Of a DNA stretch of 64,000 nt, positions 855-57,107 are shown one piece after another (the stretch's first letter is position 1; every line of letters starts with the position of its first letter). The stretch is from an uncultured Methanomicrobiales archaeon (lineage in GTDB: Archaea > Halobacteriota > Methanomicrobia > Methanomicrobiales > Methanospirillaceae): positions 640,001 to 704,000 of the forward strand of contig OY969100.1 of NCBI GenBank assembly GCA_963697895.1, given 5' to 3'. The notes beneath the pieces are model-generated. The model did not search any database. It saw nothing but the letters and a program-made list of their open reading frames with translations, and had not been told where the DNA came from. A program made the translations under genes and the position numbers.

Positions 855-2235
855 TCACGCCATCTTTTCCCGGCACCGGTCTACGAAATGCGCGAACATC
901 GCCCGGCTGCTGACCGGGTGCAGGTGGGTGTAACTCCCGATCGTCCGGTCCCGCATGGCGCCGTCGAACCGGTCGCAGATCCCATACCCCCGGGAGAGGC
1001 AATAGGCATACTCCGTGTCTTTTGCAAGACGCACGTCGGAGTAGTGGAATTCATGCCCCCGGAACCAGGATGCCCCGACCGGGGAGTCCGCACGGCTGTT
1101 CCCCTCGACATAGGTGACCACCCGCCGGGCAGGCATGCGGGTCTCCCCGGAAAATACCCCGCACATATCGTACCGTTTCGCCGTCTCCCTGCCCTGCCAT
1201 CCGGGCTCGAGGATGATCGCATCCGTCAGGTACATCAGCCCCCCGCATTCCGCGTAAACAGGGGTGCCATTCCGCGAGATCTCCCGGACCGCCTCCCGCA
1301 TCCGACCGTTCTTCTCCAGCTCGTCCAGGAAGAGTTCCGGGTATCCCCCGCCGATTATGATACCCGTCGGCGTCGGGCAGCCGGTCATGGACGGGGCTGA
1401 ACGTGATGAACTCAGCGCCGAGTCCCCGGATGGTGTCGAAGAGGTCGGCATAATAAAAGTTGAACGCCTCGTCGAGCGCGATCGCGATCCGGGGAGTCCG
1501 GGAGTGAACGGCGCTCTCCGGGAGAACAGGTAGTTCCGGGGGGACATAATCTCCCGCACAGGAGAGGAGTTTTTCGATGGAGAGGTGCTGGCCGATGAAC
1601 CCGACCACGTCCTCAATCCGGCGGTCGAACTCCCCTCTCCCCGTCCCCTCGAGGTACGGGACCAGCCCGAGGTGGCGCATCGTCAGCTCCATCTCCGGGT
1701 GGCGCGGGATCGCACCGATGACCGGGATTTTGCAATAGTGTTCGACCGCGGTGACCGCCTTGTCGATATGCTGCTTCCCGCTCACGTTATTGAGGATCAC
1801 CCCCCGGATCTTCACCCCGGGATCGAACGCAGAGAATCCCTTGACGATCGCCGCCGCACTCCGGGTGATGCTCCGGGCGCTGACCACCAGGACCACGGGA
1901 AGATCGAGTGCCTTGGCGATCGAAGCCGTGCTCCCGGAATCCGTCAGGGCCTCGGCGCCTTCGAAGAGGCCCCGTACCCCTTCGACGAGCGCGATATCCG
2001 CACCCCGGCAGCCGTGATCGAAGATGGACCGGATATCCTGCGGGGCCATCACGAAACTGTCGAGGTTCCTGCAGGGCCGGCCGGTCACCCCCGTCAGGTA
2101 CGACGGGTCGATATAGTCCATCCCGACCTTGAACGTCTGGACGCTCCGGTCCCGGGAGAGGAGCGCGGCGATCGCGAGGGTGATGCTCGTCTTTCCGCTG
2201 CCGGACCGGTCGCCGGCGATCAGGAGGGTCTTCAT
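855..2235 (-). CDS. cfbB: Ni-sirohydrochlorin a,c-diamide synthase (CbiA/CobB family), one-base frameshift near 1364
   Basis: N-terminal half (GDRSGSGKT, KVGMDYIDP, EGVRGLFEG) is in ORF 1051..2388. The glutaminase half (GGGYPE, AECGGLMYL, GHEFHYS) is in ORF 855..1616. Lies in an operon with cfbA/E/D. Confidence 0.9.
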
Positions 2236-3296
2236 CGCATCGCCCTCAACACGGCGCCGAACTCGCTCTCCTGGATCGACCGGACCCCGAGGGTCTTCGG
2301 GTGGAGGTCGACTTCCACGACCACGTGCCGGTGCCCGAGTTCCCGGAGCGGTTCCACCTGGCGGGGGCCGTTCGTTATGGAGAAACACTCCACCCCGTCG
2401 GTATACCTGGGAGGAATCGCGTGCGGGACCCCGACCAGGAGGGCAAACGCAGGCGCCCGGTCTCTGATCCGCTGGCCGAGGGTATCGCCGAGAGCACCGT
2501 ATTCATCGAGGGCGCCGCAGAGCTCCGGGCAGACTCCCCGCCGGTTCATCTCCTCCGCGATCCGTGCGGCATCCGCCCTCACCTTGGGCAGGCCGCGGGC
2601 TTCACAGTTCGCGATGTACGTGATATCTGCTCCGGGGCAGACATCATGGAGCGCGATCAGTTCGTCGGCGAACATGTAGGCCGTCTCCTTCTTCGCGTTC
2701 AGGATGGCGATCCCCCGTTCCCCGCAACCCGCGACCTCGAGGAGGCGCCGGGCGACGAGATGCTTGAGGTCTCCCCGGGAGGGTTCGATGTACGGCCGGG
2801 ATGCGGCCCCCCGTTCCCGTTCCACCTCGTTTGCCTTTGCAAGGCAGAACTTCTGCCGGTCGAGCTCCTCCTCGCTGATCCACCCGGCATCGGCCGCCGC
2901 CACGAGCGTTGCAATCACCCCTTCGATATTTTCGGGATACCCGGCATGGATATCGACCGCGATCGTGGGCGTGGAGATACCCGCCATCTCGATCGCCGAT
3001 GCCAGGTCCTCCCCGATGATCATCGAGACGCAGGTCCCGACGACCGCCATCCTCCGGGGTGAGAACTCGCGTTCGGCGTAATTGAGGACATCCTCGAGTG
3101 ATCGCTGACCCCCGAAGATAAACTCGTTGTCCGCCAGGGAGGTGGTCAGGACATGCATCCCGTCCTCTTCCAGGAGGCGGGCATGCTTGAACGAGCACCC
3201 GGACGGCCCGTGCAGGATCGCCACATCGACCTCGAGGTCGCGAGCCGTGTACAGAGCGGCAACGATGGAACTCGGGCGGGGCTGCATGTATTTCAT
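2232..3296 (-). CDS. cfbD: Ni-sirohydrochlorin a,c-diamide reductive cyclase catalytic subunit (NifD-like)
   Basis: MQPRPSSIVAALYT, HGPSGC and GTCVSMIIGED motifs; ATGA overlap with cfbB. Alternative start at 3311. Confidence 0.92.
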   Translation of the reverse strand: MKYMQPRPSSIVAALYTARDLEVDVAILHGPSGCSFKHARLLEEDGMHVLTTSLADNEFIFGGQRSLEDVLNYAEREFSPRRMAVVGTCVSMIIGEDLASAIEMAGISTPTIAVDIHAGYPENIEGVIATLVAAADAGWISEEELDRQKFCLAKANEVERERGAASRPYIEPSRGDLKHLVARRLLEVAGCGERGIAILNAKKETAYMFADELIALHDVCPGADITYIANCEARGLPKVRADAARIAEEMNRRGVCPELCGALDEYGALGDTLGQRIRDRAPAFALLVGVPHAIPPRYTDGVECFSITNGPRQVEPLRELGHRHVVVEVDLHPKTLGVRSIQESEFGAVLRAMR

Positions 3297-3301
3297 GGGT
3301 T

Positions 3302-4471
3302 TCACCGCCATGTCTTCACCGCGAGGAGGATGGAACCGGATCGGGTGACCGACCGGGCGATCTCATACCCTTCCCGGAGGTTTGGGACCGGGTGAACTCC
3401 GGGCAGTTCAGGGAGTTCCTCTCCGACAAGGATCACACGGGCGGGCCGGATATTCCGGATCGCAAGATCGATCTCGTCGGCGGGAAATCCTTCGCAGACC
3501 GCGTGCGCTTCCATGCCGATGACCAGGGTCAGTTCTTCTTTACCCGAAAGTTTCCGGGCATATGCCGCGGCATCTTCGGTCGTCCTCCGGTTGGTCCCCG
3601 AGTTCGCATTATCCAGAACCAGGACATCTCCGACGCGGGATGTGGACCACCTCCCCTCCAGCGGGGGGAAGGTCTCCAGCCCGGATGGGTCGATACCGAG
3701 GATACTGGCTGCAGCGGCGGCGAGCAGGAGCGGATCACGGTAAGCCTCGAGGACGAGGAGCGGTGATGAGAACGTCCCCGTCTTCCCGTTCATCCGGTAC
3801 GTGCAGACCCCGTCGGCAGAACGGACAATATCCCCGGGTGCATGAGTGTGCTGACCCCGGGCTTCAACACCCGGGGCGACGAGAAGTTCCTTACATACCT
3901 CTGCCGAACGGATCTTCTCTGCGAGCGCCTGTTTCATACCACCCGCAAAGGAGTAGTCTTCGGCTGAAGTGATGATCCCGAGGGTGCAGGCACCCGTAAG
4001 ACCGAGGGAGACTTCTGCGATACACCATCCGCCCATCTCCCGTGCATACCGGGCCGCCGGAATCAGTGAGGCGGGGGTGATGCTCTTCCGCCAGAGAAGC
4101 CGTTTATCCGGGTAGAGGAACGTTCCTTTAGACGTATGCAGTACTCCCGGACCGTTCATCAGGTGTGCGAGGGCATGGGCGGTGGTGGTCTTTCCCCGGG
4201 CCCCCGTGATCTCGATCAACGTCTCAGGGAGATCTTCCCCGAGGATCCACCGAACCGCCTGGTGGTGGGTGATCCGGGGACCCTCGACCGAGCGAAGGAC
4301 AGGATTTCCGGGATCGAGATGGACGGGGGAGATGACGAGGTCGTACTGCCGTGCGATGGCGGGCTCACCGCCCCGATATACCTCCACGAGGTCCACCCGG
4401 TGGCCCGTCCCGCGGAGGATCCCGGCAAGCTCCTGCCCACCGTGGATCGCGTCAAGCACCAGGATATCCAT
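3302..4471 (-). CDS. cfbE: Coenzyme F430 synthase (Mur ligase-like)
   Basis: LVLDAIHGG, EITGARGKTTT, EVSLG, DNANSGTN and C-terminal VKTWR; cfb operon context. Confidence 0.9.
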   Translation of the reverse strand: MDILVLDAIHGGQELAGILRGTGHRVDLVEVYRGGEPAIARQYDLVISPVHLDPGNPVLRSVEGPRITHHQAVRWILGEDLPETLIEITGARGKTTTAHALAHLMNGPGVLHTSKGTFLYPDKRLLWRKSITPASLIPAARYAREMGGWCIAEVSLGLTGACTLGIITSAEDYSFAGGMKQALAEKIRSAEVCKELLVAPGVEARGQHTHAPGDIVRSADGVCTYRMNGKTGTFSSPLLVLEAYRDPLLLAAAAASILGIDPSGLETFPPLEGRWSTSRVGDVLVLDNANSGTNRRTTEDAAAYARKLSGKEELTLVIGMEAHAVCEGFPADEIDLAIRNIRPARVILVGEELPELPGVHPVPNLREGYEIARSVTRSGSILLAVKTWR

Positions 4472-11038: not shown

Positions 11039-12106
11039 TCAGCCGGATTGTTCGATTTTCAACCCTTCATTGTCGACCGCCGTGCATATTGCAATCGAAA
11101 GCCCGAGGGATTCGACGATCGGTCTCACTTCTTCGGGGTTTTTCCGGGTAATAACCGCAATTGAGGGGCCGACGGAACTCATGCCTACAAATTCAAGACC
11201 GGCCTCCCGGAGCCGGCTCATGTAATGGTAGATCTCAAAGCTGTGATGCTCCACCTCTGCCCGCTTGGATCCCCGGAAATCGATCTCCCAGATCACTTCC
11301 CCGGCCTTTTCCAGGTTATCTTCTTCGAGGGCCGGAATGAGGTCCATCATCACGAGATATGCCTTGAGTGCCCGGTCCCGGTAATCGAGCATCCGTGCCT
11401 TGTTCATGAGGAGGTCAAATTCCTTATCTCCTGCAGAAGAGATATCCGACGGCGGAATGATGATATATACCCGCTTTCCCTCCGCAAACGGATGATGGTA
11501 GATCAGTGTCAGCTGGTCCCCCATGACTGCCATGCCCCCGTACAGGCTGACCGCCGGGCCTACCCCCGTCTCGAAACCGAATGCAATCTTTCCGTCCACC
11601 GTCTCCTCGACATAGTTATTGCCGATCATCTTTCTGAGCTGGTCTGCGTCGAGCGGGGATCCTACCGCACGGTTCAATGCAGTGGCGAGCGCGATCAGGA
11701 CGGTGCTGGTAGACCCGAGCCCTACATGAGCGTACTGGTGGTCCCGCGCCTTTATCCGGAATCCGCCGGTGTATCCGACGGTCTGCCGGAACACTTCACA
11801 GAAATGGCGGATGATGGAAGACCGGCCATAATCGATCTCCAGGCCCGACGGGATACATTCCGCTTCCACCGTGCAATAGAGCTGGATGGCAAAACCGACA
11901 CCCCCTCCTCCCGGACTTTCCGGTGCGAACCGGTTCATATCCATGACCGTCAGGTGGATTCGTGCCGGTGCAGTAACCGTTATTTTCTTACCAGGCGGCG
12001 CAATGACCGGTTTCTCCGGCAACCGGATCTTTCTGATCCGCTCCCCCGGAGCGAAGGAATTAAACTCGTATTCGACCAGGTCGAGGTCTCCGCCGCGTAT
12101 TTTCAT
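11039..12106 (-). CDS. GHMP-kinase superfamily, beta-RFA-P synthase-like protein
   Basis: APARIHL, GGGGVGF, HVGLGSTS and GMSSVGP, as in beta-ribofuranosylaminobenzene 5'-phosphate synthase homologs. Confidence 0.7.
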   Translation of the reverse strand: MKIRGGDLDLVEYEFNSFAPGERIRKIRLPEKPVIAPPGKKITVTAPARIHLTVMDMNRFAPESPGGGGVGFAIQLYCTVEAECIPSGLEIDYGRSSIIRHFCEVFRQTVGYTGGFRIKARDHQYAHVGLGSTSTVLIALATALNRAVGSPLDADQLRKMIGNNYVEETVDGKIAFGFETGVGPAVSLYGGMAVMGDQLTLIYHHPFAEGKRVYIIIPPSDISSAGDKEFDLLMNKARMLDYRDRALKAYLVMMDLIPALEEDNLEKAGEVIWEIDFRGSKRAEVEHHSFEIYHYMSRLREAGLEFVGMSSVGPSIAVITRKNPEEVRPIVESLGLSIAICTAVDNEGLKIEQSG

Positions 12107-12125
12107 CACCGGCACAAGGCATCTC

Positions 12126-12680
12126 CTATGATGATCTCCGGTCAAAGAAGATATTTTTTCCCGACGCCTTGAGCGGTATTCCATAGGCAACGGTGCAGTC
12201 AGGTACCCATCCGAGTGATATCGCCCCGATTCCTGCCGAATACATCACCCGGTTATCGACGTTGTGAAGGGCGGCTGTCTTCACCGCCGAACCGACGGCA
12301 ATACCGAGATCAGCCATCCGGAGCACGCAGTTCGGGCCTTTGAACGGAGGGGCAGGATGGTCCCCGGCCCTGAAGGCCGCTTCCATTTCCTGGCAGGATG
12401 CAAACCCGCAACCCCTGCAGTTTACCCCGGCGGTTTCCTGCCCGCGGACGCCGATGATCAGGCACGCATCACTCTCTGCCACGTTTCCTGCATCGCGGGA
12501 AAAAAAGCCCATCCCCTGGGATTCTCCAAAGGACCGCATCGCTGCCGCGAGCCGGGTACACTCATTAACGGTCGCGATCCGCGTTAAAATACAATCGATG
12601 CCTTTCGCTTTCGGTGCGGTCCTCGCTGCCAGTTCCATAAAAGCAGCGACCATCTCAACGGCTGACTCCCTCTTATCCAT
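12126..12680 (-). CDS. Ferredoxin-domain protein (DUF2148-like)
   Basis: AARTAPK, NCRGCGFASC, GPNC, DLGIAVGSA and DNRVMYSAG. Confidence 0.8.
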   Translation of the reverse strand: MDKRESAVEMVAAFMELAARTAPKAKGIDCILTRIATVNECTRLAAAMRSFGESQGMGFFSRDAGNVAESDACLIIGVRGQETAGVNCRGCGFASCQEMEAAFRAGDHPAPPFKGPNCVLRMADLGIAVGSAVKTAALHNVDNRVMYSAGIGAISLGWVPDCTVAYGIPLKASGKNIFFDRRSS

Positions 12681-12975
12681 AGGGAAGCTGTGGAGATCCC
12701 ACGATTTATAGATTTAGTCTCCGTACGGAACGCTCCCCCGCAGGAATGCAGGAAAGAGACCCCGCATTATCAGAACTGGAGGAAGAGAGACTCCCGCCTC
12801 GTCTCCGGTTGCTGTCCGGATTTCCCGAAAGGGTTGGTCCATTCGTTTTATGACAATATAAACAATCGCGACTGGACCGTTATTTATTATTTATCCGGTA
12901 ATATATCTCAGAATATCCGCGTTGAACAGCGCCGTTGACCCAAAATAAATACGATGAAGTCTCAAATTGATTCAC

Positions 12976-14160
12976 ATGACAGTCAGAGAGATAAAACCGG
13001 GTGTCTATAGCGTCGGCGCCCTTGATTTCGACCGGCGGCTCTTCGAAGCACTGATACCCACACCCCACGGGACCAGCTATAATGCATACCTGATCAGAGG
13101 TTCGGAGAAGACGGCCCTGATCGACACGGTCGATCCGTCCAGGGAATTCGAGCTGGTGTGCAACATTATCCGGTCGAATACCGAAAAAATCGATTATATC
13201 GTCTCAAACCATGCAGAACAGGATCATTCCGGTACGCTTCCGATGATGCTCGAACTCTTCCCGGATGCCCGTGTCCTCGCCAATGAAAAATGCCGGGACA
13301 CGCTGATCGAACTCCTCGAACTTCCGGAAAACCGTTTCTCCGTTATAAAAGATCGCGAAATTGTATCGCTCGGAGATAAGACGCTCGAATTTATCAGTGC
13401 CCCCTGGGTCCACTGGCCCGAAACGATGCTCACCTATCTCAGGGAAGACCGCATACTCTTTACCTGCGATCTCTTTGGATCCCATTCTGCGACGACCGAT
13501 CTCTATGCGGACGATGAAAAATCCCTATATAATGCTGCAAAGAGATATTATGCAGAGATCATGATGCCGTTCCGGGTCAGCATCAAGGGGCATATCGAAA
13601 AGATACAGCCGCTTCCCCTCGATATGATCGCGCCCAGTCACGGTCCCGTATACCGCAGACCGGAGTTCATCCTCGGAGCATACCGCGACTGGATCTCGGA
13701 CGAGGTAAAGAACGAAGTGGTCATTCCCTACATATCCATGCACGGAAGCACGAAAAAAATGGTGGATTACCTGACCGGCGCCCTGATCGAGCGGGGAATC
13801 CGGGTTCACCCGTTCGACATACCCGTGACGGACCTGGGGGAACTTACCATGGCACTGGTCGATGCGGCAACGCTGGTGATCGGTACACCGACCATGCTCT
13901 TCGGTCCGCACCCCGGGATCGTCTCACCGGTGTATCTGGCTAACGTCCTGAAACCAAAGACAAAATTTGCATCCATCATCGGGTCGTACGGGTGGGGAGG
14001 AAAGACGGTAGACACCCTGTCCGGAATGCTCGACCATATCAAACCCGAAATGCTACCCCCGGTATATGTAAAAGGTGCTCCAACCGCGGAGACACTCCGG
14101 CTGCTCGACCACCTCGCCGATGAGATCCGGGATCGCCACAAATCACTGAGTATTCTTTAA
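12976..14160 (+). CDS. fprA: Flavodiiron protein (A-type flavoprotein)
   Basis: GTSYNAYLI, NHAEQDHSG, HWPE, CDLFG and PSHG in a metallo-beta-lactamase domain, plus a flavodoxin domain (SMHGST, GSYGWGG). Confidence 0.92.
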   Translation: MTVREIKPGVYSVGALDFDRRLFEALIPTPHGTSYNAYLIRGSEKTALIDTVDPSREFELVCNIIRSNTEKIDYIVSNHAEQDHSGTLPMMLELFPDARVLANEKCRDTLIELLELPENRFSVIKDREIVSLGDKTLEFISAPWVHWPETMLTYLREDRILFTCDLFGSHSATTDLYADDEKSLYNAAKRYYAEIMMPFRVSIKGHIEKIQPLPLDMIAPSHGPVYRRPEFILGAYRDWISDEVKNEVVIPYISMHGSTKKMVDYLTGALIERGIRVHPFDIPVTDLGELTMALVDAATLVIGTPTMLFGPHPGIVSPVYLANVLKPKTKFASIIGSYGWGGKTVDTLSGMLDHIKPEMLPPVYVKGAPTAETLRLLDHLADEIRDRHKSLSIL

Positions 14161-14533
14161 AATCACGCGATTCCAGAAGGCTTGTCACGGAAACAGATCG
14201 ACCCCGTGAAACGAGAACCCTCCCTTCTTTTATGGAAAGCAAATTTGATTCTATTTGCGGGTATTTGCAGGGAATCACGGATATCGCCGTATAAATGTCA
14301 CAACAATTATAAGTATGCATGTACTACCTGTACATGAAACTGGCATGGCCGGTATACAGGAAACAAATTCAAATGCTGATACTCTATGGAAACATACACT
14401 GATACTCTCTCAGCATCTACTGTTATCCCTGGCCGTGCCATGTCAGTTAATGTTCCTTCCTGACCCGGGTAATTAGCATGCCCTGGAGATCCCGGTTAAC
14501 GGGGGATATTCTTCTGATATTCAGTACCCTATC

Positions 14534-14698
14534 CTAACCTGACAGGGTGCATCCGAAATCCGGAGATTACGGACACCCGGCACATTCTTCATAACATTCC
14601 GGATCTTATTCTAACCTGCCAGGTGCATCCGAATATCCGGGGGATTACGGATAACGGGCACATTCTTCATTACATACCGGATCTTATTCTAACCTGAG
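14534..14698. repeat. Imperfect 77-78 bp tandem duplication ending at the prk start codon
   Basis: CTAACCTG..GGTGCATCCGAA..GATTACGGA..GGCACATTCTTCAT..CCGGATCTTATT at 14534 and 14611, with a third CTAACCTG at 14689. Confidence 0.9.
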
Positions 14699-15649
14699 AT
14701 GAAGTGCCCAAATTTCAAGGACATTATCGTATCTTCGCCGCGGATATTTACGATCGGGGTTGCTGGCGACAGTGGGTCGGGAAAGACAACATTCACCGGC
14801 GCGATCCGGACAATTTTTGGCGCTGACCTGGTATCCACCATCACGCTGGACGACTATCACATCTATGACCGGGAAGAGCGGCAGAAACGCCATATAACAC
14901 CCCTCGCCCCGGAAGCAAATGATCTTCTGCGCCTTGAGAGGGATCTCGCCGCACTGAAACGAGGAGAGGAGATCCAAAAACCGGTTTACAACCACCATAA
15001 CGGGCGGCTCGATGAGCCGGTATCTTTCTCCCCGACAAAGATCGTCATCCTGGAAGGGTTGCTCACCCTGTTTACTCCCCGCCTCCGTGCACTCATGGAT
15101 TTTACCCTGTTTGTCGATCCGGCACCGGATGTAAGACATGAATGGAAGATCCGGCGAGATGTCCATTCACGGGGATATCCGGCCTCCGATGTGCTCAGGG
15201 AGATCGCGGAGCGCGATCCGGATTATCATGCATATATCGAACCCCAGCAGCAGTTTGCCGATGCCATCATCAGGATAGCCCATTCCCGATACGAGGGAGG
15301 CCCGGTGGAGAACATTTACCAGGTCACGCTCTACCAGAAAAAGCTCGACCGTATCTGTGAGGATATCGATCTCTCCATCAATCTCTTCGACCTCCTCTCG
15401 CTCGGTGACCGTAATTTCCTTCTGGAGTATCACCCCGAGGAACTCTTCGGGAGGGAGATGAGCGCACTTACCTTCGACGGAGAACTCAATTCCGATATCG
15501 TTCGTACCCTGGAACGAAGCATCGAAGCACAGACCCGGCTTCATCCGATCGCCCTCTTCGGGAACCGGCCTGCCGTAACCGCGGGGGAGATCGTTCAGCT
15601 GATCCTCAGCTGGAGGATCATCAACCGGCGAATCTTTCTGGAGATGTGA
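14699..15649 (+). CDS. prk: Phosphoribulokinase (archaeal type)
   Basis: [41 protein letters not shown] and YIEPQ match PRK-specific motifs. Confidence 0.85.
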
Positions 15650-15834
15650 CCGAGAAGAAAGCGGCAGATTCTTTGCCGGGATATCAACTGCTATGTCACT
15701 ACCCGCCGGTCTCCGGCAGCATTTTTTTCAGGTACAGAGTACCCACCTCACGCTTTACTAAATACCCGGAGCACAAGCCTGGTGGTGTTAACACCAGTAT
15801 ACCTAATATAAAATGCAGACCAACGTATTACGGA

Positions 15835-16653
15835 ATGAAACAGATTGCCCTCTACGGCAAGGGTGGGATTGGGAAATCGACAACCTCTGCAAACCTTTCC
15901 GCTGCCCTGTCGGATCTGGGCCTCGATATCCTTCAGATTGGATGTGATCCCAAAAGGGACAGCACCCGCATGCTCATGCAGGGCCGGCTCATACCGACGG
16001 TGATGGACCTGGTCCGGAGCCAGGGCGACGCGTCGATCACCCTCGGGGATATTGTGTTCGAGGGCTATCACCACGTACGGTGCGTCGAGGCCGGCGGCCC
16101 CGAACCGGGTGTCGGGTGTGCCGGGCGGGGAATTATCGCGACATTTCAGATCCTGGAACGGCTCGGTGCGCTCCATGGGGATGTCATCGTCTATGATGTG
16201 CTCGGGGATGTAGTCTGTGGCGGGTTCGCCATGCCCATGAGGGAAGGATATGCGGAAGAAGTCTACCTGGTGACGTCGGGAGAGCTGATGTCGCTCTATG
16301 CAGCAAATAATATCTGTAAGGCGATCCACCGGCTTTCACAGCGGGTTAAAAGCAGGTGCCGGCTCGCCGGCGTGATCTGCAACGCAAAGAACATCAATCG
16401 TGAGGAAGAGCTGGTCGCGGAGTTTGCGGAACGGATCCACAGCACCCTCATTCAATACATCCCCCGGGACAGGATCGTTCAGATCGCGGAACTGAATAAA
16501 AGAACCGTCATCGAATACGCACCGGACTCCCCCCAGGCGAGTGCATACCGTGCGCTTGCCTCATCCGTCCTTGAAAACAGGAGGCTCGATATTCCGAGAC
16601 CGATGGAGATCGATGAACTTGAATCCCTCGCCCTTGAATATATCGAGAGCTGA
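15835..16653 (+). CDS. Nitrogenase Fe-protein homolog (NifH/CfbC-like reductase)
   Basis: [34 protein letters not shown] and [11 protein letters not shown], with both [4Fe-4S] cysteines. Start taken at MKQIAL. Confidence 0.92.
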
Positions 16654-17656
16654 AGGGTGCACCCTCACGGGCGCTTTGTCGGTGACCACCTCGGTCATGG
16701 ACGCAGTCAGCATCGTGCACGGGCCGGCCGGATGTGCTCACCATAATTTTTCTCTTCTCCATGCGACCGGTCTCGATAACGACGTGATCCTCATCCCCCG
16801 GATCGTCTCCACCGCGATGAGTGAGAAGGATGTCATCTTCGGAGGGGAGGATTCGCTCTCGGCTGTCCTGAAGCGGGTGACCGCTACACATCCCGCATGT
16901 ATATTTGTCCTGACCTCGTGCATAGCGGATACCATCGGTGACGATGCCGGCGCGGTTTGCCGGAACAACGGGTCGGTTCCGGTCCATGTAATCCCATCCG
17001 GCGGATTTCTCGGGGGAGGTTTTCAGACCGGATATGAACGCGCCCTCTGTTCCCTCTCGGTCCTGGCTGATGAGCCCGGATGCGTCGGGGGGGTGACCCT
17101 TATAGGGGAGAAGAACCTCGAGTTTGAGGCCGAGCAGAACTTCCAGGAGGTTAAACGCCTCCTTATGCTGCTGGATCTCGACGTGACCCTGCGTTTCGTG
17201 AGAAAAATACCGTATGCAGATATCAGACGTCTTTCATGCGGTTCTCTGAATATCCTCCGGGATCCCGGTATTGAGATCATCGGCCGGAGTCTTCGGAGCC
17301 GCTTCGGGACACCGTTCATCGGATCGTTCCCGGTCGGCCTCTCCGGCACTCTTTCCTTTCTGGCGCAGGTCGCGGATGTTTTGGGTATCGACGCCTCTAT
17401 CGCAGTTAAATCGGAACGATCGATTCAGGAAGGGATCATACGCTCGTTCGACAATATCCGGGGATATAACATATGCCTGGATGGAGATTCACGAAGAGAT
17501 CCGGAAGTTCATGGACCGCTCGAAGAGTTGATCGATCTCCTGGATCTCACCCTCTCCCCCGGCGGAACAGGTTTGCCCGTCCCGGTTCCGTTCCCCGTCG
17601 GAAGCAACGGGATCCGGAGGATGCTCCACCGGTGGAGGAGAGTGCTCCGTGCCTGA
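16613..17656 (+). CDS. Short nitrogenase component-1 homolog (NifD/E-like, about 347 aa)
   Basis: [22 protein letters not shown] and [11 protein letters not shown]; overlaps the nifH-like gene. Confidence 0.82.
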
Positions 17657-18782
17657 ATGTTCCAATCCGGTCTGGCCCTGTGCGATGACCGGGGCATGTG
17701 CCTGTGTTGCGGGATTTGAAGGGGCAGCGGTCATAATCCACGGCCCGAGCGGATGTTATTTCTACCCGGCGACCGTCCTCCACCGAAAGCTCTACTGCAC
17801 CTTCCTTATCGAGGAGGATATCATACATGGGACAGAGGAGCGGCTGATCGGGCTGATCAGGAGCTTTCCCCGGAATACCAGAAGATTGCAGTCATTACCA
17901 CCTGCGTACCATCGCTGATCGGGGAGGATCTGAAGGGTCTCGTCGATTCCCGCGACGTTATCTTCATCGACATTCCCGGATTTCTCGGGGAGTTCGAGCT
18001 CGGATATCTTCATGCCCTGGAGAAACTCCCGGTGAAGGAAGACCCGCAGGCACCGGGGGTCAATCTTGACGGACTGAACCTGATGGACCCGTTTTGCCGG
18101 GGTAACATCGTCGAAGGAAAACGAATTCTTGACAGGATGAATGTACCGACGGGCACGGTGCTCTGCAATGATCGGGTGGAGAACCTCGGGCGCCTCTCCC
18201 CGTATACGATCGGAACGAACCCGGATCTGAGTAGCGGCCGGGGAAGACGACTCGGATCGATGCTTGGTCTCGAAGGAGTACGATCGGTCTGCTGCGAGAT
18301 AGCGAATCACTTTCCCTCTGCAGAACCCGGACCGGTATTCGACGAAACCGATGCCGCAGAGGATCTTATTACCCGGGCATGCGACCGGTATTTAAAACGA
18401 TATGACCCCCCGTCCGTCCTTATTTTCGGGGTTTTCTCCTATGCACTGTGCGTCGCGGAACTCCTGAAACGGTTTTTGGATGCGGATATCCTTCTGATAG
18501 GGTCGCGGAACGGGATCGCTTCGTCCCCGTTCAGGACCGAACAGGTGACCGATCTCGATCGTATCGCCGGACTCATCCGCGAACTTGAACCGGACCTGGT
18601 CTTTGGATCCTCTTTCGAACATTCCCTCCGGGGGAATGCCGGTTTCGTCGCATTAACCCCGCCCCTCCGGGGTACTGGTACGGCTCCGGTCCCAACCCCT
18701 CACCGGGATCGAGGGGTCACTCTCCTGCATGGAAGAAACGCTCAACGCGTGTATGGATCAGAAACGAAGAACGAATTGTTGA
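17649..18782 (+). CDS. Short nitrogenase component-1 homolog (NifK/N-like), frameshifts near 17858 and 18674
   Basis: PCAMTGA and HGPSGC in ORF 17649, then TTCVPSLIGED and PDLVFGSSFE in ORF 17753. The restored tail ...PLTGIEGSLSCMEETLNAC ends at TGA 18782. Confidence 0.78.
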
Positions 18783-18888
18783 AGGCGGGAAACACCCCTG
18801 CGGACACGATCCGGGCGTTTCACTTTCACACCGCGCAGAATGAACGGTTATATACCGCGGTTTGAGAGATATAGTCAGAGACAGGAAA

Positions 18889-19341
18889 ATGATGAAGAAA
18901 GCGGGATACATCGAACGGTGCGGTTGGGCTGCCCTGGATGAACACGGTGTACCCTGCGAGATCATCGCCCTTCACATTCAGGGCGCAACGTTCGGTGTCC
19001 GGTCCGATGCATTGATCGGTGCGGTAACGGGGGGTATTGCGGCCCGGATAGAGCGGATACAGCGCAACTGGAAAGATTACATGGAAGGGTATGCCGGAAG
19101 GGTGATGGTTTCAAAGTCCGGAAGAGCGCTGAATATCGAGCTCTTCAGCGGGGATAAATTCACCGTTTCCCTTGATGCGGTCCGGGATGTTATTGTTAAA
19201 AGAGCACGTTTTGCCACGATCGTCCAGATTCCGGACCGATCGTTGTTTGCTCCTCAAAAGGACCACAGGATAACTGAATTTGGGGAGATCTCCCCTCGTT
19301 CCTGCCAGGCGTTTGAGATCTCCGGGAAGCTGACCGCCTGA
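18889..19341 (+). CDS. Hypothetical protein
   Basis: ORF of about 150 aa filling the gap between neighbours, with TTATATA upstream. No family recognised. Confidence 0.55.
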   Translation: MMKKAGYIERCGWAALDEHGVPCEIIALHIQGATFGVRSDALIGAVTGGIAARIERIQRNWKDYMEGYAGRVMVSKSGRALNIELFSGDKFTVSLDAVRDVIVKRARFATIVQIPDRSLFAPQKDHRITEFGEISPRSCQAFEISGKLTA

Positions 19342-19403
19342 CTAGGGAACAACCGACTTCCCGTCCGTAAGAACCAAGTTGAGATTTTGTTGCCGGAGAA
19401 AGA

Positions 19404-20522
19404 TCATCCTTTTCTGATAAGATTGGCAACGTAATCCCCCACTGCCCTCGTTCCCGCACTCCCGCCCATATCCTTCGTCACCACGCCGTCGAGGATCGCC
19501 CGGCTGATGGACTTGAGGATCCGTTCTGCTGCTGCATGTTCACCGACATGGTCAAGCAGCATCGATCCTGCCCATATCGTGGCAAATGGATTCGCCACGT
19601 TCAACCCTTTATATTTTGGCGCTGAACCATGGATAGGTTCGAACATCGATATGCCCCCGGGGCTGATATTTCCTCCCGGGGCAAGGCCGAGGCCTCCCTG
19701 TATCATCGCGCCGAGATCGGTGATGATATCCCCGAACATGTTCGGAGTGACCACGACATCGAACCATTCGGGATTCTTCACGAACCACATCGTGATGGCA
19801 TCCACAAAGGCAAATTCCGTGACCACACCGGGATGCCGTCCCGCACATTCCGAGAACACATCCCGCCAGAGCCCGTAGATATCGCTGAGTACATTCGCCT
19901 TATCGACCGATGTAAGTTTCTTTCGCCGTCTTTCTGCCTGTTCGAAGGCATAGGTGATCACCCGCTCCGCCCCTTCCCGGGTGATCACCCCGATCTGGTA
20001 CGCGATCTCATCGGCATCGCTCTCGACGTCGAGCCCAAACCGTATCGTGTACAGGGTGCGGATTATCTCGAGGGTTTTCTGTTCCCGTGAAGAGCGGAAC
20101 CGGGACCCGATCCCGACATAGAAGTCCTCCGTATTTTCCCGGACCACCAGGAAATCGATTTCTGCGGGGGTTTTTCCGGCGAGCGGCGTGCTTACCCCGG
20201 GAAGGAGTTTTATCGGCCGTAAGTTGATGTACTGGTCGAAGTAAAACCGCAGTGCGAGTAGTATCCCTTTCTCCAGAATCCCGGTCCGGACTCGTTCGTC
20301 GCCGATCGCCCCGAAGTAAATGGCATGGAAACGACCGAGCTCCTGCAGTTCCTCCTCGGTGATGAGTTCCCCGCTCGCAAGATACCGATCGGCACCGATC
20401 GGAAAATCCTGCCACTCGATCGTGAAACCGAAGCGGTCAGCCGCAGCATCCAGTACTTTTTTGCCTTCATGGAGAATCTCAGGACCGATCCCATCCCCGC
20501 CTATCGCTGCGATCCGGTACAC
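19404..20522 (-). CDS. leuB: 3-isopropylmalate dehydrogenase (isocitrate/isopropylmalate dehydrogenase family)
   Basis: [26 protein letters not shown] and EPIHGSAP; operon with leuC/D. Confidence 0.8.
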
Positions 20523-23762: not shown

Positions 23763-24066
23763 CAGGGATATTCTCAATGAAATCTGGGCGGTGATCAATG
23801 ATCGATTCGAACATCCCCAAGAAGGATCCTATATAACTCAGCTTATCGCGGATGAGAAAGGGATTGACCGGATGCTGGAGAAGGTAGGGGAGGAATCGAC
23901 AGAATTTGTCATCGCCGTGAAGAACGGGAGACCTGACCGGATCCGATCAGAAGCGGCGGACCTGCTCTTTCATCTCCTGGTCGCACTCCGTGCATCCGGT
24001 GTAGATATGAAAGATCTTATGGAAGAGCTGGAAAAAAGACGCGGGATGCGTCACCCGAAAAAGTAG
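23755..24066 (+). CDS. hisE: Phosphoribosyl-ATP pyrophosphohydrolase
   Basis: GSYITQL, KVGEESTE and EAADLLFHLLV. Alternative start at 23746. Confidence 0.9.
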   Translation: MPDRDILNEIWAVINDRFEHPQEGSYITQLIADEKGIDRMLEKVGEESTEFVIAVKNGRPDRIRSEAADLLFHLLVALRASGVDMKDLMEELEKRRGMRHPKK

Positions 24067-24522
24067 CTGTTCAGGTCAACGAGCTCGGGTAGATCGCTTT
24101 TTTTCACGGAAGAACCCTCCACGACCCGCGGATCGATGACGATATCGGCACCATAACGAAGAGCCAGCGCAATACCGTCACTGGGTCTGCAATCGAGCGT
24201 TTCCTCCTGATCTTCACGCATGAGCGAAAGAGTGGCATAATAAATGCCCTCTTCCAAGGTATCGATATACAGACTCCTGAGCTCTGATTCCGAAGGTACC
24301 GAGAAGCTCCACAAACAAGTCATGCGTGAGCGGGCGTGGGGACAACTCACGGTTCAGGGCATTATTGATCGAGATTGCTTCCCAGAGGCCGATGTAAATA
24401 GGAAGACATGCATCGCCATCCAATCCGAGAATCACCGCCGGAGACGCACCGGTATCGTTTAATGCAACAAATACTCCCTGTATCGTACATCGGATCGGGT
24501 CATTGTCCGCGATAAAGGTCAA
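24051..24522 (-). CDS. Bifunctional nuclease family (DUF151), frameshift near 24285
   Basis: LPIYIGLWEA and RPLTHDL in one frame; YYATL and DCRPSDGIALA in the next. Confidence 0.82.
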
Positions 24523-24608
24523 CTCCCTTCATCTGGTATATCTCGTTTGTGTTCATATAATGGGTCGCATAATTGCAGATATTCAGGACAACGTGCAGAT
24601 ACCGCTGA

Positions 24609-31007: not shown

Positions 31008-31792
31008 TCATGAAAGATGTGGCATGGGTTTGGGGGACGATTCCACCCGTTGAGAGTAGACCCTGACCGCCCTGAGCAGGTCGATCCGTCGGAACATCGG
31101 CCAGTATGGCGCACAGAAATATACCGCTGATTCATGTCCGTTCGCAAGCCACGGAAGAAAATTAGAGGTCCTGAATTCGTTCCCCGTCCGGATGATCAGA
31201 TCGACCGGAGGAAGTTGCATTCCGCCATTCAGGTGCCGCTCCACCAGCCCTTCATCGATATCCGCGGGAGTATACACTCCTGATCGTATCTCATCGAGAA
31301 TCTCCCGGATCGCAGACACGATCTCGTTCCGTCCTCCATACGCCAGGGCGATGTTCAGATAATAGTCATGATATCCGGCTGTCGCCGATTCTGCCGCATC
31401 GATCGCCGCAAGCAAATCCGGGGGAAGCCGTGATCGATCCCCGACCATCTGGACCCGGATATGGTAGCGGTGCACCCGCTCATCTTTGAGCACCCGTTCG
31501 AATTTCTCTTTGAAGAGGGCAAAGAGGTCCGATATTTCGGTTGTATCCCGGTTAAAGTTCTCCGTTGAAAATGAGTAGAGGGTGATATATCTGATCCCGA
31601 CTCTCTGGCCCAGTCGAGCAGCTCTTCGGTTTTATCGGCCCCCGCACGATGCCCTTCCACTTTGTTGATCCCGGCAAGGCGGGCAAACCGCCGGTTTCCG
31701 TCCTGAATAATCGCAATATGTTGTGGTATAAAACGGCATTGTTTCAGGAGCGTTCGTACGTAAATCGGCTCGATAAAGCGTCTTGATATCAA
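31008..31792 (-). CDS. uppS: cis-prenyltransferase (polyprenyl diphosphate synthase), frameshift near 31600
   Basis: HIAIIQDGNRR and GHRAG in one frame, then YSFSTENF, AYGGRNE and DLIIRTG..RTSNFLPW in the next. Confidence 0.88.
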
Positions 31793-32758
31793 AGCGGGGT
31801 CACCTCGACGATCATCCCGTGGTCCGGATACCGTTCCAGAACGTATTTCTTCCCGGGTAATTCATCCGCATATTCGGTAAGGAGCCACCACGCCATATCA
31901 ATATGGTCCCCGCAGTCTTCATACATCCCTTCATCAAGCATTAAAATTTTCTGATCCGGGTTCTCCTTCTCGAGGACTCCATATACAATGGTGCCGTCAT
32001 CGGTGATCTCGTCAAACGGGCGTGCCGTATTTGAGGCGATCCGGATCAGGCGTTTCCTGAGTTGCACGGAATCCTTGAAACTTGAGGGGCACCAGTGAAC
32101 TTTTTCATACCGGCAGAGATCCGATGCCCATTCACGGGCGCCGTAGATTGCATTGTGCACACCGTCGGAGAACGAAAGTCCCCTCTTCCGCATCTCGTCC
32201 GCATTCGTGTCTCCCCATTCCAGCTCGTTGATATTGAGAAAATCAAGTTCCGGGAGTATCGGGATGAGTTCCGCCAGCCCCGGGAGGGCTGGTACCTCTA
32301 TCCCAATCGAAAAACCCATCTCCCGTGCATCACGGGCGGTCAGGAAGAACGGACTCGACAAAATTGACGGCCATTCTTCGGACGGAGGGTGGAGGCGTAT
32401 CTCGTCGACGAAACCCGTGAGAGCGCTGAGTTCTTCAACGGTAAGCGCACGCCCGGTATAAAGGTGTATATGATGTTCGTCTCCGAATTCCCGCTTCAGG
32501 AGACGGCAGCTGTTCACCACACGGTCGAGGCGGAGGAGAGGCTCTCCACCGGTGACACCCGTTCCCAGTGCGTCCATCCGGTGTGCTTCCCGGATAATGT
32601 CCTCGACAGACTGAACATTCCCGGTCGTTCGCGAAGATCACATCCTTTCCTTTCCGTTCACGGGATAGAGGACAATACCAGCAGGAACGATCGCACCGGC
32701 CGGTGATGAAGAGTACCATTTTGGCGCCCTCATGGCAGAGCTGACATCCCGTGCTCAT
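31789..32758 (-). CDS. Radical SAM protein (archaeal, uncharacterised), frameshift near 32611
   Basis: [24 protein letters not shown], then TGGEPL, HLYT, DEIRLHP and NINELE. Confidence 0.85.
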
Positions 32759-41700: not shown

Positions 41701-42434
41701 TTGCTGGAGTCGAGCTTCTTCACACAGACCTGGCATATGGTAAATCCGGGATCTGCCGTGATATCGAATACGGGTTGGTCCCCGCAATCATACGGCGAAG
41801 GCGTCCGGGCGGTAATCTTGCCTCCCTTGTTCGGGATGATCGTGACATCGTACTGAAGGTTGGCCTTGTTCTTACTCTTGAAGTCGGAGTCCTTTGCGAC
41901 GTCATATGGCTCAAGGTCGGTGCTCACCCACGCATAGAAGTCACACTTCTTCATTTCAAGGTCCGCACAGGGCAGGAAACAGATACGTACAATCTTATTC
42001 GTGGGTACATCTATCGGAGTCCATATCTTTACGGTCGTGGTCTTCTTCCCCTCCCCGTCTGTTGGAGTGGGATGCCCGGGCACCTTACCGAAAAATACCT
42101 CAACATCTGTGGGGTTTTCCGGGGTCGTCCACTCTCCTTTGACGGTATCATAATACGAGACCTCAATGCAATACGAGTTTATCACACTCGGTACGCACAC
42201 GTTCTCATCCGGAAAGCTGACCAGAAATGCGTTGATACCTTCACTCACACCCTTATCTATGGTAAATATGACACATTTCGTTGCATCAGTACATGGCCCT
42301 TCAGGCTGGTCGATCGATACCGATACGTCGTGGATCGCAGCGACCGGAGTAACCGCCAGCAGGCAACCCACCAGGAATACCGCGAGAAGAATCGCTAACC
42401 GGTTCTTCTCCAGGGTCTTTCTCATCATTGTCAT
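38703..42434 (-). CDS. Large Cys-rich secreted protein (B) with a right-handed beta-helix region
   Basis: GGAGG RBS before ATG 42434; signal peptide; about 46 Cys by hand count; beta-helix repeats (IINNTIYN, IIGNKIYNN, AKENWWG); C-terminal GWN...GYWV domain. Confidence 0.85.
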   Translation of the reverse strand: MTMMRKTLEKNRLAILLAVFLVGCLLAVTPVAAIHDVSVSIDQPEGPCTDATKCVIFTIDKGVSEGINAFLVSFPDENVCVPSVINSYCIEVSYYDTVKGEWTTPENPTDVEVFFGKVPGHPTPTDGEGKKTTTVKIWTPIDVPTNKIVRICFLPCADLEMKKCDFYAWVSTDLEPYDVAKDSDFKSKNKANLQYDVTIIPNKGGKITARTPSPYDCGDQPVFDITADPGFTICQVCVKKLDSSNDPCYSASACDPGIGTFTYDPKHSTFKFDPLHECWEISATFRGNVTVFLKYQNATADCGAINPIGSTCDFIYTSNNITDALDFVDCLYIGGDDAEFSLDSTKNHAFHPTYGNFMGGTWNDGPPVGEAANIDVPSNPNGATDTETFQVTVDLNDGTQVVADPVTITGPGLYPIEYLGNPLTNIVNVENVVGTNAGTTCLYQDFFDIFGVTSGTCYGNYGHPPDPAGQWNDGKSLGESVCVDISCPPTKHCGETYLVTYVGDDGTTNNQATLIIVNDEVRIWWAPQNDHRGPPNIVDILDVCPQMPAWQLHTQCWIDEHPEFEGLIGALIVVDNGIYKETFEMDTPGVVLKAKNKGGAVIDAFGVPPAFNATEFPDGRAGAVFITAGCTELNGFVIKNAGRCNGGSPDIDGNGYMDAAGVVVHPSSWKCAAAYIDGGKEVEKDHVMAFPCCEGRVNIINNTIYNSTAEGILANNTVVLVEGNDVYQNCWDGFGGEELKCGVECIDPYAITHCYHVVTEILFNQFHDNGCGKMSSWEGKDCNDKSRVSFSTAYLDPPKNGDPFWIDAGIEIRSVVNCCCRDNEKEADGLVGLDGSDGFFCRECNDGEQFLEFSNPFIIGNKIYNNAHAGINLLDCAVAKGNCDYEPIVTAGANVSLIGSDIQDRKHCEQHLTILENEIKDNKVFGISSFADPALIIIKYNDIVGNKWWGIKNFVTNEGLEHCETDLLIAKENWWGKIGGPSMGPAPICHERDERSLALGNGDAVSELVEYNPWLTQPYAIVLKNDPVRWYGSDSLELQAGWNTLSVPLTLDDRADTIMEISYLGKYLTSDNFVIAYQFNANTHLFEPISPNMIPCRGYYIKVKEGTRFPVLYSGSESPGLPTYPLSNGWNLVGSAFGIDKKDDKIGSDEGRWAVANPDTRDPEAEKSAEEALNSIMSVSPRGLSTVISPSVPGQIQTWALTADDLKKKDLYTGEGYWVFMVNPATLSGFEITPFHFEFELPS

Positions 42435-42529
42435 TCGTTTCCTCCAAAGAAACGGTGATATGCAAACGGTCTCTCCGCTCTCGTACTCGTATGTAGAAAT
42501 ACCCCCGAGCACCTATCGATGCCCAAGGC

Positions 42530-49220: not shown

Positions 49221-49245
49221 ATAGCTTTTTCTTCCATGCGTATTC

Positions 49246-49986: not shown

Positions 49987-49990
49987 TGGT

Positions 49991-52545: not shown

Positions 52546-52630
52546 CTTTATCACAGATCACATCGATAACAGAAATATCTGAAATATTTGCTCTTATAGA
52601 TATGGGTAATTAAATATAAATATAATTGGG

Positions 52631-52645
52631 TAGAAGCTATTTTCC
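52631..52645. promoter_or_regulatory. NrpR-like operator upstream of glnA
   Basis: TAGAA-GCTATT-TTCC, one mismatch from the GGAA-N6-TTCC consensus, downstream of an AT-rich TATA region. Confidence 0.7.
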
Positions 52646-52647
52646 AT

Positions 52648-53976: not shown

Positions 53977-54059
53977 TTTTTCCGGTTTTAAAAATATTAA
54001 AAAATTTTTTCTTATATAACTGAATAAGGATAAACAGATCTTGAGGTATGGCTCCATTA

Positions 54060-54683: not shown

Positions 54684-54698
54684 TAGAAATGTATTTCC
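54684..54698. promoter_or_regulatory. NrpR-like operator upstream of the first glnK
   Basis: TAGAA-ATGTAT-TTCC. Confidence 0.7.

Positions 54699-56768: not shown

Positions 56769-57107
<339 letters not shown>

Follow-up and report, generated by a model that had tools for sequence, protein, structure and literature searches.

Which reaction is served by a trio of overlapping nitrogenase-like genes in a methanogen, and which Fe protein drives it? The question is raised by positions 15835–18782 (forward strand) of a 64,000-nucleotide stretch of contig OY969100.1 (positions 640,001 to 704,000; hereafter the window), which comes from an uncultured Methanomicrobiales archaeon. The host genome is a single, closed contig of 2.09 Mb with a completeness of 93.85%, and the finding of mcrA in it identifies the host as a methanogen. 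The first gene of the trio, H (15835..16653, + strand), encodes a NifH-family ATP-dependent reductase of 272 aa (PF00142, 354.7 bits) with the P-loop GKGGIGKS and two cluster cysteines. It is followed by D-like (16613..17656, + strand), coding for an alpha-type component-1 homolog of 347 aa (PF00148, 168 bits), and K-like (17649..18782, + strand), coding for a beta-type homolog of ~377 aa when read through its frame breaks (PF00148, 36.5 and 52.9 bits). The overlaps amount to 41 nt between H and D and to 8 nt between D and K, in agreement with a first-pass annotation of the same DNA, which had described three overlapping genes with short component-1 homologs of 350–380 aa.

Leaving aside the class of substrate, the reading towards which we lean, if only slightly when taken as a whole, is that of a heteromeric reductase driven by CfbC and devoid of a complex cofactor. 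The first-pass annotation had proposed an uncharacterised heteromeric reductase. This part stands, as the pair formed by D-like and K-like (D-K) is recognisable neither as nitrogenase nor as CfbD and falls into none of the characterised clades sampled; what does not stand is the view of H as a private partner of the pair, since H scores as CfbC.

The Fe Protein of the Operon

The protein H exceeds the cut-off of the NCBIfam model for CfbC (NF033200 F430_CfbC, 418.8 bits versus 402) and stays under that for NifH (TIGR01287, 384.8 bits versus 394.35), and it is identified by these family scores as a CfbC ortholog. No other PF00142 match in the genome is strong (H reaches ~354 bits and the runner-up 38.9), and CfbD, CfbE, and NifB are encoded there in addition to mcrA. 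As H is both CfbC and the only strong NifH-family protein, the locus has to be read as cfbC plus a second catalytic pair, and the self-contained H-D-K trio of the first-pass annotation is abandoned. In a 61-genome sample of the phylum, CfbC-scoring genes (404–429 bits) adjoin cfbD directly in families f7, f14, f23, and part of f10, while in Methanomicrobiales the CfbC-scoring gene (412–421 bits) adjoins D-like and not cfbD.

The role of CfbCD in F430 synthesis is established, according to a 2026 review on nitrogenase-like (NFL) proteins (PMC13474568). Among 41 sampled Methanomicrobiales genomes, each at least 90% complete, 28 hold exactly one NifH-family gene at E ≤ 1e-30. Given the established role of CfbCD, in those cells this single Fe protein must serve F430 synthesis, and the D-K pair most likely shares it.

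The arrangement is not a peculiarity of this genome. D-like adjoins H in 40 of the 41 genomes, the exception being a fragmentary one in which H lies at a contig end, and the H-D-K order is kept across 45 related loci (of which four break off ahead of K and one is a distantly related fusion), which belong almost throughout to Methanomicrobiales. In a 151-genome sample of the phylum, a D-like ortholog was found in all 23 Methanomicrobiales (22 scoring at least 252 bits, and one split) and in none of the 128 other genomes, where the best match reached 105 bits with 33% identity. The protein database holds more than 1100 homologs, the top 120 of which are all of Methanomicrobiales type and annotated merely as ‘nitrogenase component 1’, and the carriers of the pair include the cultivated Methanoculleus bourgensis, M. 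marisnigri, and Methanolinea mesophila. cfbC-D-K is thus a near-universal operon of Methanomicrobiales, restricted to this order in the sample, and both D-like and K-like are under purifying selection across the order.

Cysteine Pattern and Cofactor Site

Both component-1 homologs keep the three N-terminal cysteines noted by the first-pass annotation. In D-like, they lie in the motifs EGC (C16), GPAGC (C41), and TSC (C103), and in K-like in WPC, GPSGC, and TTC. An alignment of 31 relatives shows C16, C41, and C103 of D-like to be invariant and C116 to be present in at least 90% of the sequences, while C4, C11, C36, and C86 of K-like are each found in at least 90% of its relatives. When the three P-cluster columns are compared in an alignment of 77 superfamily members, D-like has C/C/C in 12/12 rows and K-like in 11/11, the twelfth K-like row (P0122) having been gene-called without its first 12 residues. 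The same pattern is seen in all rows of NifD, NifE, NifK, and NifN; CfbD has S/C/C in 11/11 rows, so that its lack of the first cysteine, stated in the first-pass annotation, is borne out, BchB has P/D/C (one row), and BchZ has G/C/S. All six P-cluster cysteines by which nitrogenases are recognised are therefore present in the D-K pair.

The cofactor site presents a different picture. The column of NifD Cys275 (Azotobacter vinelandii numbering, as given in PMC13474568), which was located by the CHRS motif, holds Arg in 12/12 D-like rows, and this residue, Arg216, is invariant in 31/31 relatives; in the HMMER alignment with NifD of C. pasteurianum, ‘LNILR-D’ stands opposite ‘LNLVQCHRS’. The absence of a FeMo-co cysteine ligand, suspected from the start, is thus confirmed. 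Furthermore, D-like fits only positions 1–273 of the 399 of PF00148 and ends ~60 residues further on, and its structural model has only two short strands past residue 285. From this partial fit and the two short strands it follows that the His-ligand domain of NifD is largely gone. The reference NifD offered no anchor for a motif search of the His442 column, a region that D-like largely lacks. An additional cysteine, in the D116 column, is found in 11/12 D-like and 3/3 NifE rows and not in NifD. Among the invariant residues of D-like are many charged ones (including R216, R182, R194, K167, and several Glu/Asp), which would suit a polyanionic substrate.

Phylogenetic Position of the Pair

D-like and the K pieces exceed the PF00148 gathering score of 28.6, and are consequently members of the component-1 superfamily. 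The best matches of D-like to sequences in the PDB are NifE/NifEN (9i0g, 88.9 bits), NifD (63 bits), AnfD (60 bits), the methylthio-alkane reductase (MAR) chains 9d9u/9fmg (56.8 and 39.7 bits), and BchB (45 bits). Similar affinities are obtained at the level of the fold, with models of good quality for D-like (pLDDT 84.9) and for the K-like protein of a relative (P0123, pLDDT 92.5). The best Foldseek match of D-like is NifE (9i0f_A, E 2.5e-18, TMq 0.73), with NifE, NifD, BchB, and MarD all at TMq 0.71–0.73, and the K-like model matches VnfK, AnfK, NifN, and BchB at TMq 0.80–0.83. The E values against NifE/D/K/N and BchB run from 1e-17 to 1e-20, with identities of 14–23% throughout.

A phylogeny against NifDK, NifEN, CfbD, BchNB/YZ, and MarDK had been recommended in the first-pass annotation. 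A tree was built from 77 rows (quick IQ-TREE, LG+C20+F+G4, SH-aLRT support), together with a second one without nine long-branch rows. The references comprised plasmid-borne nifDK(E) of N. vulgaris and C. butyricum, bchNB/bchYZ of S. guttiformis, and two unnamed NFL pairs, as well as archaeal nifDKEN, CfbD, and several NFLs from loci scored with NCBIfam. Labelled Mar (including MarDK), Isr, Nfa, and Group VI sequences are not among the rows, and these families are set apart from D-K only by ligand pattern, gene context, and scores against PDB sequences. D-like and K-like form one clade each, with a support of 100 in the 77-row tree and of 99 and 100 after the removal of rows. Further clades are those of CfbD (100), NifD/NifE (99), NifK/NifN (100), and a group designated here ‘D2’ (99), and the Bch sequences stand in clades apart from D-like and K-like. 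The trees thus support a position of both proteins outside every characterised clade sampled.

The closest relatives in both trees are archaeal systems in which a NifH::NifE fusion is accompanied by a NifN-like protein, already noted by Dos Santos et al. 2012 (PMC3464626). The NifE-like parts of the fusions from loci L080 and L053 (Bathyarchaeia) are sister to D-like (support 93, and 85 after row removal), and their N-like partners group with K-like (88 and 96). Like D-K, these systems lack the FeMo-co cysteine. They differ, however, in that they have the Fe protein and the alpha-type subunit joined in one chain, whereas H is separate and scores as CfbC; in that the N-like partner shows D/C/(S or P), with one cysteine kept, instead of three cysteines per subunit; and in that they adjoin ABC importers, of which the Methanomicrobiales operon has none. 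Nitrogenase-like cassettes are also borne by plasmids: in one from Ca. Chlorohelix (L064, 8649-13681), nifB-nifX-nifH-D-K has an O-acetylhomoserine sulfhydrylase and an ABC importer as neighbours, and in one from Sporomusa termitida (L065, 3949-11273), NifH and two component-1 genes follow an iron-type ABC importer.

Comparison with Characterised Enzymes

CfbCD is among the closest known systems: H is orthologous to CfbC by its scores, and the methanogen host carries cfbB, cfbD, and cfbE. D-K and CfbD also have in common that they are short component-1 proteins without a site for a complex cofactor. In CfbD, however, there is only one subunit, which has S/C/C and makes up a clade by itself, whereas D-K has two subunits with C/C/C each. 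An assignment of D-K to CfbD (Group IV-B) is accordingly rejected, on the basis of the CfbD model TIGR03282 (44.1 bits for D-like and 24.2 for the N-terminal piece of K, versus a cut-off of 268.4), the cysteine pattern, and the separate clades.

Another component-1 protein, D2, occurs close to CfbD in some genomes. It is a solitary PF00148 protein of ~396–407 aa (L071, 3927-5117, - strand; L072, 4874-6076, + strand; also in L073, L074, and L082), which has a cysteine at all three cluster columns and in the NifD-Cys275 column. D2 ends a cfbE-cfbD-cfbB-ilvE cluster in two Methanomicrobiales genomes and is also found in another methanogen family; it is not present in the genome of the window, whose PF00148 matches are CfbD, D-like, and K-like.

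D-like finds its best match in NifEN, by sequence as well as by fold, and the two have in common three cysteines in the alpha-type subunit and the cysteine of the D116 column. On the other hand, the identity is just 20–29%, the cysteine that binds the L-cluster in NifE is Arg in D-like, less of the third domain remains, and the genome holds neither nifE nor nifN, as PF00148 matches only CfbD and the two proteins of the pair. A role as NifEN maturase is thus rejected, with scores of 106 bits on nifE (TIGR01283, cut-off 505) and 25 bits on nifN (TIGR01285, cut-off 327), Arg in place of Cys, and a placement outside the NifD/NifE clade.

A looser variant of this idea is that D-K is non-catalytic and works as a NifEN-like Fe-S scaffold, carrier, or chaperone, for instance for CfbC/CfbD or for another methanogen metalloenzyme. 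The affinity to NifE as the closest characterised relative (in the nifE score, in 9i0g, and in the Foldseek match) and the D116-column cysteine, common to 11/12 D-like and 3/3 NifE, would fit such a role. Yet the cluster-binding column of NifE is occupied by Arg, every score is far under the family cut-offs, D-like is excluded from the NifD/NifE clade (support 99), and F430 and MCR are made in other methanogen orders that have no D-K. We regard a scaffold as quite improbable, and of the two non-preferred roles for the protein family that are weighed in this section it is, by a little, the weaker.

DPOR and COR (BchNB and BchYZ, Group V) likely share with D-K the general route of electrons, from an Fe protein through an inter-subunit cluster to an organic substrate, and both subunits have BchB near the top of their fold matches (TMq 0.73 for D-like and 0.83 for K-like). 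In DPOR, the [4Fe-4S] cluster is held by three Cys and an Asp, whereas D-K offers six Cys. An identity with DPOR or COR is rejected by this difference, by the separate clades, and by the Bch models, on which D-like reaches 55.6 bits at most (BchB, cut-off 490; BchN 37.8 and BchZ 36.6, with cut-offs from 324 up).

With NifDK and with MarDK (Group IV-C), the pair has in common the six-Cys P-cluster pattern, the alpha/beta heteromer, and a NifH-type driver. Unlike both, D-K is 100–170 residues shorter and lacks the cysteine ligand of the catalytic cluster, most of domain III, and a linked NifB/MarB. A Mo, V, or Fe nitrogenase is therefore rejected: Arg replaces Cys275, the nifD and nifK models give 60 and 44 bits (cut-offs 653 and 427), nifE and nifN are missing, and NifB is unlinked. 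MarDK itself, whose catalytic cluster is bound by Cys270 and His429, is rejected as well, given Arg in the Cys270-type column, the absence of a NifB-type gene from the locus, and the low scores against 9d9u/9fmg.

More difficult to dismiss is a reductase of the MarDK or IsrDK kind in a broader sense, in which D-K would cleave sulfur compounds or other small molecules, the P-cluster feeding an L-type cluster that is made by NifB and bound through non-canonical ligands. The six-Cys pattern is that of NifDK, the D-like model matches MarD (9d9u_A, TMq 0.71), and the genome encodes a NifB homolog (354.8 bits, above its cut-off). Moreover, most Group IV sequences keep the P-cluster cysteines, and MAR has been observed with a P-cluster and an L-like cluster, as described in PMC13474568. 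Nevertheless, the Cys270/275-type ligand is Arg in 12/12 rows, the domain that would provide the His ligand is cut down, the similarity to the 9d9u/9fmg chains is low, and sulfur-metabolism genes are not among the neighbours. The NifB gene, in turn, is unlinked, and every methanogen would be expected to carry one, as the MCR activation complex calls for it (PMC12176620, PMC13474568). We consider this kind of reductase improbable.

Finally, Group VI NFLs have been described in PMC13474568 as keeping at most four of the six P-cluster cysteines per DK pair and as lying in a context rich in radical-SAM genes; with six of six cysteines and no radical-SAM neighbours, D-K is rejected as a member of that group, a distinction made without placement in the tree. 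The sulfur or NifB gene context of isethionate reductase (ISR, Group IV-F) and Nfa (Group IV-A) is absent at the locus.

The Interrupted K-like Frame

In the record analysed here, K-like is split into three open pieces (17649-17858, 17861-18676, and 18678-18782, + strand), so the frameshifts reported by the first-pass annotation are indeed in the sequence. A hidden Markov model (HMM) of the K proteins of relatives (392 positions) matches in three pieces (positions 3–94, 87–359, and 359–390) that alternate in frame without loss of positions, which implies one base missing near 17857-17860 and one extra base at 18676/18677. The first site (17855..17860, + strand), within CTGATCAGG, is one base short in comparison with close strains; the second (18676..18677, + strand), within GGTACTGGTAC, has one base too many; and the HMM switches frame at both. 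The comparison relies on contigs from metagenome runs of three studies (X1, X2, and X12), whose strains are 97–98% identical to the window. All three have an additional base behind 17857 or 17859, and X1 and X2 are one base shorter at 18676/18677, which restores the frame.

Could the locus then be in early decay, with K-like truly inactivated in this organism as a recent pseudogene and D-like left an orphan? Two frameshifts in 1.13 kb, amid intact H, D, PRK (phosphoribulokinase), ODP, orf159, and IPMDH genes, speak for it, as does the fact that the frameshifts were compared with close strains and not with the assembly's own reads, public runs having matched at most 0.44 of the sampled words. 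Against it, the K pieces span all HMM positions with no further lesion, and K is intact in the close strains. The ratio pN/pS is ~0.26 in the comparison with the X2 contig, with 13 nonsynonymous changes at 847 sites and 17 synonymous changes at 284 sites. Besides, the completeness of the genome is as low as 93.85% despite its closed contig, and two genes unrelated to K are split within the same 64 kb. These are a UppS-like cis-prenyltransferase gene (31011-31861, - strand; Pfam Prenyltransf 1-38 and 30-215 in different frames) and a BFN-domain (bifunctional nuclease) gene (24054-24528, - strand; BFN_dom 2-55 and 50-110 in two frames), and because these conserved genes are split likewise, the breaks in K-like are read as assembly error. 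The junctions also share motifs, since site 1 of K lies within GATC and site 2 within GGTAC repeats, and GATC and GGTACC are found in the junction regions of the UppS-like and the BFN gene, respectively (as regions, not exact indel positions); this context suggests a systematic base-calling error. The frameshifts in this record are thus most likely assembly errors, and a pseudogene is unlikely.

At the level of the lineage, the concern raised by the first-pass annotation, that the frameshifts might be real and the locus decaying, does not apply. K is intact in the nearest strains and reads as one frame from stop to stop in 39 of the 40 K-holding loci among the 45, the split one being a long-read-style metagenome-assembled genome, and the intact nearest homolog, P0122, has 89–93% identity to the three K pieces. 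From these comparisons, the K gene of the lineage is concluded to be functional.

Proposed Mechanism and Substrate

According to the mechanism proposed here, the operon cfbC–D-like–K-like would combine the Fe protein of F430 synthesis with the subunits of a second catalytic component, specific to Methanomicrobiales. A dimer of CfbC, carrying a [4Fe-4S] cluster and MgATP, would dock over the D/K interface. Electrons would pass from it to a cluster between the subunits, to which each contributes three of the six Cys ligands, and which may be a P-cluster-type [8Fe-7S] cluster or a related one. This cluster would then reduce an organic substrate held directly in a cavity of D-like, at the position of the cofactor in NifD, where the invariant Arg takes the place of the FeMo-co/L-cluster Cys and where the third domain is cut down. 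Such a transfer from the cluster straight to the substrate would resemble that of DPOR, COR, and CfbCD, with the difference that it would use a nitrogenase-type six-Cys cluster.

We infer the heteromer, CfbC as the donor, the type of cluster, and the class of substrate, and these parts differ in strength. D-K is probably a functional catalytic partner of CfbC. As for the heteromer, a structure prediction of the D-K pair reached a score of 0.57, with 0.00 for the best of three controls, a contact agreement of at least 74%, and a partner pLDDT of at least 86. The mark used for such scores is passed by 116/157 solved complexes and 2/215 mismatched pairs, and passes at ≤ 0.60, as here, comprise 18 of the 157 solved complexes and both passing mismatches. 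The prediction therefore gives weak support to a heteromer, and the pass may only mirror likeness, because NifDK, NifEN, and BchNB are solved structures.

The substrate is where the proposal is most tentative. In the L053 system, a Peripla_BP_2/FecCD/ABC importer of the BtuFCD kind lies directly upstream of the fusion genes. This importer beside a sister system, together with the linkage to cfbC, makes a tetrapyrrole the best guess, and a polyanionic tetrapyrrole, either a corrinoid or an F430-pathway or F430-derived compound, might be accepted; this is an analogy that could well fail. A specific form of it would have D-K act as the missing cobalt-precorrin-6A reductase, in place of CbiJ in corrinoid synthesis. 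PF02571 (CbiJ) is found in none of the 41 Methanomicrobiales genomes, CbiC and CbiD are encoded in the genome of the window (204227-205592 of the contig), and the missing step is a reduction of a tetrapyrrole C=C bond. However, PF02571 is also missing from all 151 genomes of the phylum sample and has no match in the genomes of M. acetivorans and Haloferax that served as controls, while D-K orthologs are confined to one order, so that the absences do not coincide. The replacement of CbiJ was dropped on the grounds that its absence is unspecific, and we hold it to be very improbable. The cobalt-precorrin-6A reductase step apparently has no known gene across the phylum.

Several points weigh against the reading as a CfbC-driven reductase. 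Shared transcription with cfbC is no proof that CfbC serves D-K. The trees are weakly supported at their deep nodes and contain no labelled Mar, Isr, Nfa, or Group VI sequences. The class of substrate rests on analogy and on the gene context of the sister clade; next to the Methanomicrobiales operon itself, neither tetrapyrrole nor transporter genes are found, its flanks being ODP, PRK, TrkH (in relatives), and IPMDH, and no cobalamin riboswitch was found at Rfam gathering scores in five related loci (L053, L064, L065, L079, and L080). The sister system may also differ in function, since the D/C/(S or P) pattern of its N-like partner is of the [4Fe-4S] type. As six cysteines are also the pattern of MarDK, and the genome holds a NifB homolog, an L-cluster bound in another manner is conceivable. 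Finally, the two frameshifts in 1.1 kb exceed the average rate of the window, although a loss of K specific to this strain is held to be an unlikely event.

Probable Transcription Unit and Genomic Neighbourhood

Upstream of the operon, a terminator-like hairpin with a T-run (15705-15727) lies 3' of the PRK gene, and a TATA-box-like TAATATAAAA (15804..15813, + strand) is found 22–31 nt 5' of the start codon of H. Given the hairpin after PRK and the AT-rich TAATATAAAA, as read from the sequence, H-D-K may be regarded as a transcription unit of its own, with TAATATAAAA as a possible archaeal promoter. A search of public runs listed no RNA data set that contains the stretch. Downstream, orf159 (18889..19341, + strand) encodes a conserved protein of 150 aa from its second ATG, which has no Pfam or NCBIfam match and no usable Atlas match. 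It follows K on the same strand in many, but not all, relatives (38–49% identity, tblastn), and is possibly part of the unit.

The wider synteny, ODP - PRK - (TrkH) - H - D - K - orf159 - IPMDH, consists at its flanks of unrelated housekeeping genes, with ODP being flavodiiron-like and a TrkH transporter gene sitting between PRK and H in relatives. A link to PRK/RuBisCO was considered and rejected in favour of plain synteny, as TrkH intervenes in relatives and the hairpin ends PRK.

The F430 genes of the window lie 13 kb upstream of cfbC and on the opposite strand, in a cluster cfbE - cfbD - cfbB-like (1051-4471, - strand); in other orders of the phylum, cfbC and cfbD are direct neighbours. 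It comprises cfbE (3302-4471, - strand; NF033197 CfbE, 316.9 bits), CfbD, the established partner of CfbC (2232..3311, - strand; TIGR03282, 491.5 bits), and a cfbB-like gene with CbiA/AAA_26 domains (1051-2388, - strand).

Scans with Pfam and NCBIfam found no nifE, nifN, nifB, or nifI in the H-D-K locus, as the first-pass annotation had noted, with the NifB homolog lying elsewhere in the genome. That annotation had likewise seen no NrpR-type box. GGAA-N6-TTCC, which we take to be the NrpR operator consensus, does not occur near the locus, and its three occurrences in the 64-kb window compare with 2.56 expected by chance; nitrogen regulation of H-D-K is rejected on this basis, as far as the assumed consensus holds. 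Rfam gave no match at E ≤ 0.1 within positions 12000-20000, and none of any family at gathering scores in L053, L064, L065, L079, and L080.

A block of nitrogen-assimilation genes is located at 48216-57107, comprising glutamate-synthase-like genes (48216-52554, - strand), glnA (52648-53976), and amtB with a P-II gene (55560-57107). Beyond the unlinked NifB homolog, the genome has no nif genes. Two long open reading frames also stand out in the window, one of 1269 aa without a Pfam match at 1e-6 (38703-42512, - strand), and one of 1550 aa with SpaA/CarboxypepD_reg-type repeats, probably a surface protein (43417-48069, + strand).

Significance of the cfbC-D-K Operon

Sequences of this general type are not new in themselves. 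Dos Santos et al. 2012 (PMC3464626) describe NifE/N-like clades with three cysteines in each subunit and without both FeMo-co ligands, ‘including Archaea’, as well as nifH-nifE fusions. The available portion of the 2026 review (PMC13474568) lists Groups IV-A to F, V, and VI without the cfbC-D-K operon, and no paper on this operon of Methanomicrobiales was found in the full-text literature, subscription journals being outside the coverage. What appears to be new, as far as seen, is that H is CfbC and the sole Fe protein of the cell, that the distribution of D-K is order-wide and order-restricted, and that the pair is sister to the fusion systems, with a shift to the full six-Cys set.

The characterised members of the small set of nitrogenase-like enzymes (DPOR, COR, CfbCD, MAR, and ISR) have each brought new chemistry; the functions of uncharacterised clades have been named the main challenge of the field (PMC13474568). 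As the pair is near-universal, stands behind the only Fe protein, and occurs in cultivated species, a concrete experiment with CfbC and D-K is possible. Meanwhile, nifH-based surveys and annotation pipelines will go on labelling these genes ‘nitrogenase’.

For the biology of Methanomicrobiales, a cfbC unit with D-K points to a second job for the electron-donor gene of F430 synthesis. The pair bears on how one Fe protein serves two catalytic partners and on the rise of alpha/beta nitrogenase-type proteins from the F430 machinery, an origin proposed in PMC12176620. In its fullest form, the proposal would be that CfbC is shared by two clients in every Methanomicrobiales cell, namely CfbD and an order-specific D-K heterotetramer with a P-like six-Cys cluster and no cofactor that would reduce a tetrapyrrole directly. 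That complete statement is a bold one and rather unlikely to hold in all its parts. If it were true, D-K would be the first enzyme to pass electrons from a P-cluster to the substrate, and a living intermediate, within the F430 machinery, between CfbD-type homomers and nitrogenase-type alpha/beta proteins.

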